Shown here one piece after another: positions 35,756-43,441 of a stretch of 64,000 nt of DNA. The stretch covers positions 201,166 through 265,165 of the forward strand of contig JAHPZJ010000013.1 of the NCBI GenBank assembly GCA_019058245.1, read 5' to 3'. The notes under the pieces were generated by a model. It saw only the letters and a program-made list of their open reading frames with translations, made no database searches and was not told where the DNA came from. Source of the stretch: Promethearchaeota archaeon. Lineage in GTDB: Archaea; Asgardarchaeota; Lokiarchaeia; Sigyniarchaeales; SOKP01. The position numbers and the translations under genes are program-made. Within the stretch, counting starts at the first letter, position 1, and every line of letters starts with the position of its first letter.

Positions 35756-36094
35756 CTATATAAAATCATTTGAATCGAAACGATAAGCTGCACGAGTTAA
35801 TCCAACATAATTGTCACTAATCTTATAATACATTTTCCCATTAACAATTTTTTTCTGTAAATAACTATTTTTAATAGTATGGTTTATACCATGAATCATT
35901 GTACCCAAAGTAACTGCACCTATAAACCCATGTTGTTTTTTTGTGACTCTTATTAATTCTAGTTCAGAATGCCATTGACCATCTAAAAGAGCAATAAGTA
36001 TTTCATTTTTTATTGGAGTTTTGATGTCTTTAATTTTATTGAATAAATTAGAATAGCTTGGTTTATAAAAACTTTTATCATCTAAATTTGTCAT
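35756..36094 (-). CDS. Small winged-helix-like hypothetical protein
   Basis: KNEILIALLDGQWHSELELIR..YLQKKIVNGKMYYKIS wing pattern. Confidence 0.6.
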   Translation of the reverse strand: MTNLDDKSFYKPSYSNLFNKIKDIKTPIKNEILIALLDGQWHSELELIRVTKKQHGFIGAVTLGTMIHGINHTIKNSYLQKKIVNGKMYYKISDNYVGLTRAAYRFDSNDFI

Positions 36095-36212: not shown

Positions 36213-37334
36213 TTATAGAAGATTTGGGGGAATTCCTTCATTAAAATATTTAGCTCGAGTAATCCAATTTTGGGAAAATTCTGGAATCATCGCTAATATA
36301 GATCCCCCAATCCATACTGAAAATGTACGTTCCATAGGAGCAATAATTCTTATAACTTGATTTTTTTTCTTTCTTCTTGCTAACTCTAATTCTAATTCTT
36401 GATAGATACGTGACTTTAGATTAGGAAACATGGATGATCCTCCCGAAAGAAAAATATTATTTAATAACTCTGGACGAACATCTAAATCACAAGCTTCAAT
36501 AACATCCATGATGGCAATATGTAAAGCATCTTCCTCTAATTCCGAAGTTGGTTTAAATAATATTTCTGGTACAATAAATCTTTCTTTATTGAGAGAAATA
36601 GTTGAACCATCTGGTAAAGAATATTCTTTTTCATATTGTTCACTCCGTTTTAGATCTTCTTTATAATCTAATGAAACAAAGCAAGCTTTTTCCTTTAAAA
36701 CTCTGACTAATTCTCTACGTATTGAAGAATCAACAGACCATCCAATTGATTCTAAAATTTGTTCCATATAATGTGTTAAAGCTCTGCCACCAATATCCAG
36801 AATGCGTACAGCATGCTCCAATTTGTATCCCTCATATATAGGAACAATTCTAGTATTACTGTCGCCTATCTCCACGATTAATCCTGTTTGAAATCCTCCT
36901 GAATAGAGAGTTAGCATTGAATCTAAAACAGGATAAAACGACATACATTGATAGCGTTCTAAGAATAATTCAAATATTTTCTCCAAATCTTTATATGGAA
37001 ATAACGGATGTACAGAAAATAATACATTTACTAATGTAGGATCTACTCGTAAATTATAAAAAATATATTCAATTATATTCTTGAAATGATTCCAATCAAC
37101 GACAATTCCTTTTTCGATAGGATGAAAGATTTTATATAAGCCTATTGATTGAATTTCATCTCCTACGTATAATTCATCTTCTCGAGACTTTTTAGATTCA
37201 TAATCAACATTAACATTTTGATACTTAGGTTTCCCAACCATGGTTAAAAAAACTTGACTAGGAGAATCCTCCCCTGCAAAACCTATTTTTGAAGAAAATT
37301 GACCAATGTCTAAAACAACTGTTAAATTTCCCAT
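36213..37334 (-). CDS. Actin-family protein (divergent Asgard actin/ARP)
   Basis: VVLDIGQFSSKIGFAGEDSP, YVGDE, HPIEKGIVVDW, VPIYEGY, LKEKACFVSLDY, YSLPDG, ERFIVPEILFKP, LSGGSSMFP, SVWIGGSILA. Confidence 0.95.
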   Translation of the reverse strand: MGNLTVVLDIGQFSSKIGFAGEDSPSQVFLTMVGKPKYQNVNVDYESKKSREDELYVGDEIQSIGLYKIFHPIEKGIVVDWNHFKNIIEYIFYNLRVDPTLVNVLFSVHPLFPYKDLEKIFELFLERYQCMSFYPVLDSMLTLYSGGFQTGLIVEIGDSNTRIVPIYEGYKLEHAVRILDIGGRALTHYMEQILESIGWSVDSSIRRELVRVLKEKACFVSLDYKEDLKRSEQYEKEYSLPDGSTISLNKERFIVPEILFKPTSELEEDALHIAIMDVIEACDLDVRPELLNNIFLSGGSSMFPNLKSRIYQELELELARRKKKNQVIRIIAPMERTFSVWIGGSILAMIPEFSQNWITRAKYFNEGIPPNLL

Positions 37335-37606
37335 TGGTTATTACAATTTAAATTATTTTGTAGACAATTAGCCTAAATAATACTATCTTATATATTATTT
37401 TAATTATTAAAAAAATATGTTTAAATTTTGAACAATAAAATCTTTAATTAACACTAAAAAAGTAGGGTTCTATTTTCAAAATATAATAAAGCTTCCCAAT
37501 TGATGGATAAAGAACTTTATTGAAAGAATAAAGAAAAAATTTAAAAAACAGATAAATATAGAGCAGATTCGAACTCAATAATCTTTTTTTATTAAAAATT
37601 AAGCTT

Positions 37607-38329
37607 TCATTCTCCCCTCATAATTTTCTTTAGACGATTTAGTTCATCTAACATTTCATCACGAAGAGATCCTAAACCTCCGCCTGTTTTTGGGGCTATT
37701 GCTGATGCTCCAGGGACAGGTGCTCCTGGAGGTTTTGGAAGGGTACCACCTGGAGGTCCAGGTCTTTTAGCAAATGAGGTTGGTGCCGCAGGGGGGCCAC
37801 TACTAGAAGGTGCACCAGGAGCTTTAGGAGGTCCACCTCCCGCTGGAGGTAATTTTGGAGCTGGAGGCAAACTTGGTTTTTTAGGGGGTCCACCACTTGA
37901 AGGCGCGGCAGGGGGACCTACTTTTTTAGGGGGTCCACCACTTGAAGGCGCGGCAGGGGGACCTACTTTTTTAGGGGGTCCACCACCTGGAGGTGCAGGA
38001 GCGCTAGGAACAGTTAATGCAGGAGCTGCTGGAGCGGTAGGTGTAGAAGCGGTACCTCCACCACTACTTAATAAGCTAAATAATGTACTGGCTGCTGCTG
38101 TTTTTGCCCCCTCACTTGTGGGAGCTACTATTTTTTTAGAGGAGGTACTAACAGTTTGAACTTCTTCAACAACAGAAACTTCCTTCAGATCCTTCTGAGC
38201 TTTAGCCAAAGATTTGATAAAATCATTTATTCCTTTAACTGTCTCTTCTAGATCATCAGCTAAAGAAGTTAATCCTTTTTTCATAAAATTAATAACTCTT
38301 TCAACTTTTTTCTGTTCTTTTGAAACCAC
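37607..38329 (-). CDS. Coiled-coil / proline-rich / WH2-like-tail protein (candidate actin regulator)
   Basis: N-terminal heptad helix (aa ~5-50); about 120-aa P/G/A-rich tract; C-terminal GGGLGSLRDEMLDELNRLKKIMRGE. Confidence 0.75.
   Translation of the reverse strand: MVSKEQKKVERVINFMKKGLTSLADDLEETVKGINDFIKSLAKAQKDLKEVSVVEEVQTVSTSSKKIVAPTSEGAKTAAASTLFSLLSSGGGTASTPTAPAAPALTVPSAPAPPGGGPPKKVGPPAAPSSGGPPKKVGPPAAPSSGGPPKKPSLPPAPKLPPAGGGPPKAPGAPSSSGPPAAPTSFAKRPGPPGGTLPKPPGAPVPGASAIAPKTGGGLGSLRDEMLDELNRLKKIMRGE
37877..37986. repeat. Perfect 45-nt tandem repeat (about 2.4 copies) encoding GGPPKKVGPPAAPSS
   Basis: TTTTTTAGGGGGTCCACCACTTGAAGGCGCGGCAGGGGGACCTAC at 37877 and 37922, plus a 20-nt partial copy at 37967. 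Confidence 0.95.
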
Positions 38330-38628: not shown

Positions 38629-38925
38629 ATGCCTAAACGTGAACTCTTCATAATAGGCTTAACATCTCGTTAGGTTTGTGAAAAAAGGGTATATGAAATT
38701 GTAAATGAGCTTAAAATACCTCTGATAGACGAAAGAGTCTATGATAAAGTAAATTTTAGTGCGGGATCAGCCATCGCTTCTGTAATCTTCAGATTTGAGG
38801 AAGATGAATCAGTTATCCGTGGCTTTCTCGGTTTGGCGGAATACTTTCATACAGTTGTAATTAAAAAGAAGGATGAATTTTATATTCCCCATGCCAGTAT
38901 TTTATTCAAATTGGAAAGTGCTTAA
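38629..38925 (+). CDS. Unannotated 98-codon ORF with an in-frame TAG at codon 15 (recoded gene, non-canonical start, or pseudogene)
   Basis: GGTGA SD-like motif before ATG 38629; MPKRELFIIGLTSR*VCEKRVYEIVNELKIPLIDERVYDKVNFSAGSAIASVIFRFEEDESVIRGFLGLAEYFHTVVIKKKDEFYIPHASILFKLESA; T8 run after the stop. Confidence 0.6.
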
Positions 38926-42527: not shown

Positions 42528-42923
42528 ATGCATGAATTTATTGAAGTAAAATTCATTTCTACTAAAAAGGGGAGGGGTGCATTTGCCAAGAAGGCAATTA
42601 AGAAAGACACTATTATTGATGTTGCATATGTAGTTCCTATTCCAAATAAAGAATATAAGAAAATATATAAAACAATTTTATATGATTATTGTTATATTTG
42701 GGAAGACCCAGACCATATGCCAGCATTTAGAAATGCTATAACTCTTAGTATAAGTCAATTTATTAATCATTCATTTATACCCAATCTCAAATATTTATAT
42801 GATTATGAGAATAAAGCAATAGAATTTTCTGCGATTAGGGATATTTCTGAAGGAGAAGAATTAACGGTAAACTATAATGGACTTGTTGATGATAAAAGTG
42901 CTATGTGGTTTGAAGTGGAATAA
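42528..42923 (+). CDS. SET-domain protein-lysine methyltransferase
   Basis: KGRGAFA, SQFINHSFIPN, RDISEGEELTVNY. Confidence 0.92.
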   Translation: MHEFIEVKFISTKKGRGAFAKKAIKKDTIIDVAYVVPIPNKEYKKIYKTILYDYCYIWEDPDHMPAFRNAITLSISQFINHSFIPNLKYLYDYENKAIEFSAIRDISEGEELTVNYNGLVDDKSAMWFEVE

Positions 42924-43036
42924 TTAATTCTATGTTTCTTAAAGACTTGTCAAACCTCAGGTCAATCTTTTAATAAGAATCAGAAAAACCTATCAATTTA
43001 TATATTAAATGATACAATCAATAATTATTGAATTAG

Positions 43037-43441
43037 GTGAATTCTACGAATAACCTATTAGAAGTCAAATTTATTTCAACAAAAAAAGGAAGAGGTGTAT
43101 TTGCAAAAGAGAATATATCAAAAGGAGTGACCATAGATATTGCTTACATCCTCCTTATTCCTAATAATGATTGGAATTTAATCGAAGATACAATTTTATC
43201 TAATTACTCTTTTGAATGGGATGACCCTAAGTGCATAGGAGAATATGAATCGGCAATCTCTTTAAGTATTAGTCAACTTATAAATCATTCATATTATCCA
43301 AATATTAAATATATTTATGATTACAAAAATAAATGCATTGAATATATTACGCTTCGAGATATTACTAAAGGCGAGGAAATTACTGTAAACTATAATGGAG
43401 AACCTTTTGATGATTCACCTGTGGGATTTGAAGTAGAATGA
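43037..43441 (+). CDS. SET-domain protein-lysine methyltransferase (tandem paralog)
   Basis: KGRGVFA, SQLINHSYYPN, RDITKGEEITVNY. Confidence 0.92.
   Translation: MNSTNNLLEVKFISTKKGRGVFAKENISKGVTIDIAYILLIPNNDWNLIEDTILSNYSFEWDDPKCIGEYESAISLSISQLINHSYYPNIKYIYDYKNKCIEYITLRDITKGEEITVNYNGEPFDDSPVGFEVE

Follow-up and report, generated by a model that had tools for sequence, protein, structure and literature searches.

Does the gene directly upstream of a divergent actin in this Asgard archaeal genome encode a nucleation factor that serves this particular actin, as a preliminary description of the 64,000-nucleotide stretch analysed here (the window) had proposed, or does it encode a protein with a wider role? 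Asgard archaea possess both an actin cytoskeleton and ESCRT machinery, and to our knowledge neither an actin nucleator nor an elongator or a membrane linker is known from them. Among Asgard actin regulators, those known to date are for the most part gelsolins and profilins (bioRxiv 10.1101/2025.11.30.690169). Our analysis shows that the gene is genuine and that its product belongs to a previously undescribed protein family of Asgard archaea (family A). Very probably this protein is a tether with a portable docking helix and does not serve the adjacent actin in particular.

The tether is a protein of 240 aa with a GTG start (37607..38329, minus strand). Open reading frames, Pfam and AF2 confirm a gene upstream of the actin and on the same strand, with a coil, a Pro-rich part and an end helix. 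The AF2 model places helices at residues 4-50, 74-88 and 219-237, with everything else disordered. The N-terminal amphipathic or coiled-coil helix (aa 4-50; 38180..38320, minus strand; pLDDT ~95) displays two hydrophobic heptad columns and a hydrophobic periodicity of 102 degrees. Two features had been overlooked previously: the second short conserved helix (aa 74-88; 38066..38110, minus strand; AF2), in which L83 and L87 are at least 90% conserved, and an LPPxPK[LM]PP-like motif at aa 154-162 of the linker, present in 16 of 30 orthologues. The linker itself (aa 95-215; 37685..38047, minus strand), disordered according to AF2 and variable in length, is built of Pro, Ala, Gly, Ser and Lys (34% P, 17% A, 16% G) and contains three GGPPKK units; its prolines indeed come in runs of only two at this locus, as had been remarked before, and of four at most among 30 orthologues. 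The chain closes with the putative portable docking helix (aa 219-239; 37613..37675, minus strand), delimited by AF2 and by a profile of the tail.

Neither the whole protein nor its N-terminus has a Pfam match above the cut-off, PDB profile searches returned generic or designed coiled coils only, and a search of the ESM atlas with the tether found its own cluster only. Every informative source name among the 120 homologues listed reads "hypothetical protein", and a literature search, mostly of openly readable papers, found no description of family A or of the families B and C treated below. The N-terminus of the tether is matched in 152 of 400 Asgard genomes, and family A also occurs in Asgard genomes of 1.4 Mb. 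Two cultured species possess the tail helix, L. ossiferum and P. syntrophicum; the family A orthologue of L. ossiferum is the gene between UYP44327.1 and UYP44329.1.

The layout of coil, Pro-rich linker and helix is analogous to that of VASP and WASP, and this part of the earlier reading is supported. The assignment of the tail to WH2 is a different matter. A Pro-rich region followed by a helix and, in Lokiarchaeia, an LKKI string resembles WH2 (PF02205), but the PF02205 profile finds nothing in the whole genome at E<=10, whereas 8 of 14 control genomes do match; none of 18 tails matches WH2 or any other family above the Pfam cut-off, and a PDB profile search with the tail found no WH2 structure. 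LKKI had been described as following the helix, but AF2 models it inside one continuous helix (219-237), two residues after the last helix hydrophobe, while the LKK[TV] of WH2 is extended and comes after a linker. Conservation of a helix-LKK motif among orthologues had been named as a check on the earlier reading; the helix is strongly conserved, the LKK part is not: 30 tails show 17 variants of the LKKI column (e.g. IKEIF, LREIF, LKAFM), always with another hydrophobe after it. The string is moreover common in the genome, where 125 of 2805 ORFs contain one. The protein ends four residues past LKKI and has neither the central nor the acidic segment of WASP/WAVE, nor the profilin-type polyproline (runs of at least five).

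The EVH2 part of Ena/VASP consists of a Pro-rich region, GAB, FAB and a tetramerising coil, with a short helix preceded by a Gly run. The tether likewise combines a coil, a Pro-rich linker and a short helix after a Gly run, but its coil comes first, so that the order is reversed, and it lacks EVH1, GPPPPP and a basic ARRR-type end, the last of which is found in family B. Pfam reports neither an EVH1 domain nor VASP_tetra (PF08776) at this locus, and the suggested resemblance to the VASP tetramerisation helix is thereby left without a profile match. That Asgard actin regulators can contain WH2-like motifs is shown by the structurally proven LRRV/LKHV/LVDV motifs after the gelsolin domain of 2DGel gelsolins (PMC9433394); nothing comparable is present in the tether. 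The features tested place the tether outside WH2, WASP/WAVE, Ena/VASP and ESCRT-III, although its tail may nevertheless function in the way of a FAB/WH2 helix or of MIM1.

The tail is nearly invariant among 37 orthologues of the same clade and so is no chance sequence: L222, M226 and E229 are invariant, and R223, L230, R232, L233 and K234 nearly so. A profile of these ~22 aa finds matches in 234 of 269 Asgard genomes (~87%), and 121 representatives among 1.84 billion proteins. Among the carriers are 36 proteins that combine TM helices with a Pro-rich part, at least six Ras-like GTPases fused to the helix, TIR and LRV proteins, and others with a zinc-binding-like domain; the helix is located terminally or within the chain, and some carriers hold two or three internal copies. 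The tail helix is thus a portable motif common to many unrelated Asgard proteins, and its diverse carriers together with its terminal, internal or repeated placement suggest a docking or assembly motif.

Among the carriers, family C is membrane-anchored by one or many TM helices and has a helical hairpin, a Pro-rich linker and the same end helix. It occurs mostly in lineages without family A (loci L190-L206, L210, L211, L213, L220, L221), usually beside a gene that reads like ribose-5-phosphate isomerase. By eye the hairpin had been considered as a steadiness box or CdvA hairpin; Pfam gives this no support, and no such hairpin is described in the section of PMC10936438 consulted. Two further groups were observed. 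Proteins of ~150-270 aa carry one or two internal helix copies and then a putative CxxC...CCxC zinc domain (L137, contig C24:69520-69975; L225, L227, L228), and another soluble protein family with the helix, from the archaeal family f16 (L215, L226, L231), lies 24-45 kb from Lokiactin in four genomes.

The steadiest neighbour of the tether is a divergent gene for an 88-aa protein (38629..38925, plus strand), found at 19 of 28 loci outside this family of archaea and at 11 of 13 inside it, and the two genes match in their family-level presence and absence. The 88-aa protein has a confident predicted fold (pLDDT 92), for which no clear solved counterpart was found (Foldseek best E 0.28, VIA best Z 4.4); against the atlas it reaches TM 0.66 to parts of DUF5305/UPF0182, and Pfam yields nothing above the cut-off. 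At the present locus an insert of 30 nt, in frame and containing a TAG (38653..38683, plus strand), splits the gene. The insert forms a hairpin (z -3.9) and allows a pairing in which a helix of 4 bp separates two bulges of 3 nt each, a bulge-helix-bulge-like geometry. At least five further genomes of the genus share the insert, with changes that preserve the stem, and most relatives are without it. Judged from its sequence, it is a candidate mRNA intron of the bulge-helix-bulge type in Asgard archaea; our literature search on Asgard introns returned tRNA introns only.

Which receptor might the helix dock on? The tails of Asgard Vps2/24/46 have been described as MIM1-like (PMC7240154), and MIM1 tails of ESCRT-III, which are read by the MIT domain of Vps4, resemble the tether in that a terminal amphipathic helix follows a flexible, Pro-containing linker. 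When the tail profile is built with ESCRT rows left out, the top rank among the 2,270 other C-termini of the genome goes to the ESCRT-III tail encoded next to Vps4, and 13 of 24 Asgard ESCRT-III tails fall in the top 1.4% of the ranking; the profile of the family B tail gives no such ESCRT-III ranking. The tether and the ESCRT-III tails of this genome share a core of hydrophobe-xx-E-L-x-R-L-K, and the corresponding pattern [LMI]xxE[LI]x[RK][LI][KR], defined post hoc, occurs in 5 of 2271 C-termini, among them both ESCRT-III genes and the tether. The MIM1 pattern (hydrophobes at i, i+4 and i+7, then K/R) fits the tail with M226, L230, L233 and K234, each at least 90% conserved.

Other comparisons with ESCRT-III are less favourable. 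Scores of the tail against ESCRT-III tails are low (11.9 bits, hhalign probability 27%), and in the reciprocal search the ESCRT-III profile puts the family tails at a median rank of 55 out of 2271. The helix of the tether is longer than MIM1 helices, and the conserved L222-R223 and I236-M237 fall outside the MIM1 core. Internal and tandem copies, as seen in other carriers of the helix, are unusual for MIM1. The only two Snf7 (PF03357) matches of the genome are located on contigs C9 and C30, and the tether has no Snf7 core; none of 20 carriers scanned contains a Snf7 or MIT domain, and the tail-bearing genes have no conserved ESCRT neighbours in the loci examined. The phyletic pattern does not discriminate between actin and ESCRT, because in the lineages without the tail actin has diverged and ESCRT-III has diverged or is missing.

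We propose that the tether acts as a flexible adaptor of coil, long disordered linker and end helix. The N-terminal coil would self-associate and/or bind the 88-aa protein, a partnership suggested by the co-inheritance of the two genes; the linker, predicted to be disordered, would supply reach; and the end helix would dock in a groove of one Asgard-wide receptor, as the portability of the helix suggests. Soluble family A and membrane-anchored family C would supply the same tag in largely complementary lineages. As receptor we would favour an MIT-type helical bundle (Vps4 or a relative), slightly ahead of Lokiactin, since the second half of the helix shares its core with the MIM1-type tails of Asgard ESCRT-III. 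The explanation as a whole, with a flexible adaptor, an Asgard-wide receptor and the MIT type ranked first, is tentative and falls somewhat short of an even prospect; the MIT/ESCRT receptor taken by itself, proposed from likeness between tails, is plausible but doubtful.

Alternatively, the helix might bind the barbed-end cleft of the universal Lokiactin, and not that of the neighbouring paralogue, in the manner of FAB or WH2, and soluble and membrane-anchored carriers would act as a minimal Ena/VASP that tethers filaments or elongates them. In its spread the motif equals Lokiactin (PMC9834061), the cleft of Lokiactin is canonical by sequence comparison, and membrane-anchored carriers and tandem copies would suit actin-membrane linkers and tandem binders. 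This reading also draws on family B, the 155-aa member of which in the present genome consists of a coil, a Pro-rich part and a basic tail (contig C25:70770-71237; L134:1271-1738). Family B is matched in 289 of 400 Asgard genomes, where weak matches may reflect the Pro tract, and many of its homologues have Pro runs of up to 5-7. The tails of families A and B are similar (hhalign probability 88%), more so than the tail of family A and those of ESCRT-III, and the basic tail of family B, which follows PPPPP runs, is presumably comparable to the FAB helix of VASP. Family B is the better VASP-like candidate of the two. A common N-terminal coil of both families was considered and, at an hhalign probability of 37%, treated as generic. 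An Arf-like GTPase on contig C26 (37602-38840) carries a tail of the family B type at its C-terminus.

Against binding to Lokiactin stand the lack of any WH2 or PDB match, the invariant acidic E229 of the tail and the missing extended LKKV-type segment. Loki profilins reportedly fail to bind polyproline (PMC8410842), and the linker has Pro runs of only two. A published Lokiactin co-IP (10.1101/2025.11.30.690169) was consulted for the rows with ratios between the highest and -1.06, with L. ossiferum tags assigned by accession offset and a mass check for the neighbour of family B. Within these rows the candidate tags of family A are absent, as they are from the top ~1,900 proteome rows of the same source, and the family B orthologue (inferred to be UYP45916.1) is abundant yet absent from the co-IP rows. 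Over the range covered, these absences count weakly against a stable association with filaments; the evidence is weak because the tags were mapped by offset and the family A protein is missing from the proteome rows as well. On balance we regard a Lokiactin-binding helix as rather unlikely.

Another explanation dispenses with a separate receptor: the helix could be an oligomerisation zipper similar to the VASP tetramerisation helix, by which the carriers self-assemble. A continuous amphipathic helix with hydrophobic residues at 219, 222, 226/227, 230, 233 and 236/237, invariant E and R that could pair as salt bridges, and a placement at the terminus or in the middle of proteins are consistent with a zipper, but PF08776 is not matched, the helix spans only about five turns and the protein already has a coil of 47 aa, so that we consider this distinctly unlikely. 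It is also conceivable that the helix docks on a different Asgard-wide hub, for instance a roadblock/longin or a dimerisation-docking domain, within a GTPase signalling network. That the helix is found joined, repeatedly, to domains of the Ras-like GTPase, TIR, LRV and zinc-binding-like kinds points in this direction, but this carrier list is the sole positive point and no candidate hub was identified, which makes a hub of this kind quite improbable.

There remains the actin next door, a protein of 373 aa (36213..37334, minus strand) with a full-length match to Pfam Actin (PF00022, E 6.7e-91). It is 40% identical to the Lokiactin of the same genome and falls in a separate clade from Lokiactin (SH-aLRT 100, by a quick tree method only), the members of which come from this family and one sister family only, with a partial match that suggests a third. 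Its L. ossiferum orthologue is UYP44126.1, which belongs to the three ARP-like homologues of that species; all three are transcribed below Lokiactin (PMC9834061). Its nucleotide site is altered, with D at the Q137 position and E at D154, and so is its barbed-end cleft, with IPEF versus LKTF in Lokiactin. To call it ARP-like, as was done before, is fair for a conserved paralogue with an altered nucleotide site. The genome contains four more actin-family genes (C6:157849, C10:46165, C20:26551, C29:10502): Lokiactin, its faster-evolving duplicate on C10, an ARP of 507 aa that has an insertion, and one that is very divergent. Genomes of the archaeal family f19 (L168-L173) possess a tandem pair of very divergent actin paralogues of ~340 aa.

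Tether and actin are separated by 272 nt of AT-rich spacer (37335..37606; 18% GC) with five T runs of 5-7, and the gap with its T-rich runs is confirmed; many relatives have a PIG-L-like deacetylase (by sequence reading) or other genes at this position. At 43 close loci the tether-actin pair lies mostly within a block with a phosphoribosyltransferase, a small gene, a wHTH-like gene and a topoisomerase IA; the actin is linked no more closely than the topoisomerase or the wHTH-like gene. To the same family-level block belongs the gene for a 112-aa protein (35756..36094, minus strand), winged-helix-like by eye and without a Pfam match. Elsewhere in the window, two tandem genes for ~130-aa proteins (42528-43441, plus strand) look SET-domain-like by eye.

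A conserved linkage between tether and actin, as the earlier reading would require, holds inside this family, where an actin is nearby in 13 of 13 loci, and breaks down outside it, with 0 of 28 loci from nine other families. These counts come from loci fetched mostly with ~6 kb on each side, some shortened by contig ends, and are tallies and no statistical test, since related genomes are not independent. The orthologous actin lies 44-273 kb from the tether in four genomes of the sister family, the closed genomes showing distances of ~273 kb (L. ossiferum) and ~100 kb (P. syntrophicum), and it was not found in nine tether-bearing genomes of five other families (completeness 81-94%). In some genomes genes of the opposite strand intervene between the two (L030, L036). 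The adjacent actin is a family-level neighbour only. A primitive nucleation-promoting factor dedicated to this specialised actin would accord with the co-oriented neighbours in all 13 sampled family loci and in most of the 43 close ones and with the conserved ARP-like character of the paralogue with its altered nucleotide site, but with no actin of any kind at the 28 outside loci, an orthologue far off or not found, other genes equally linked or intervening and a diverged cleft, it is very improbable indeed. As a general module, the pairing of nucleator and ARP is largely refuted: its linkage is limited to one family, and the actin clade is absent from lineages that keep the tether.

Whichever protein reads it, a helix that occurs in about 87% of the tested Asgard genomes and has been swapped onto membrane proteins and GTPases represents a core interaction of these archaea. 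It is unlikely, in our estimation, that the helix, as borne by soluble tethers, membrane proteins and small GTPases, constitutes a pan-Asgard docking code for the barbed-end cleft of Lokiactin. If this should prove true, the actin-membrane linkers and elongators so far missing from archaea would be found in families A, B and C, and these would be a possible source of the FAB and WH2 helices of eukaryotes.
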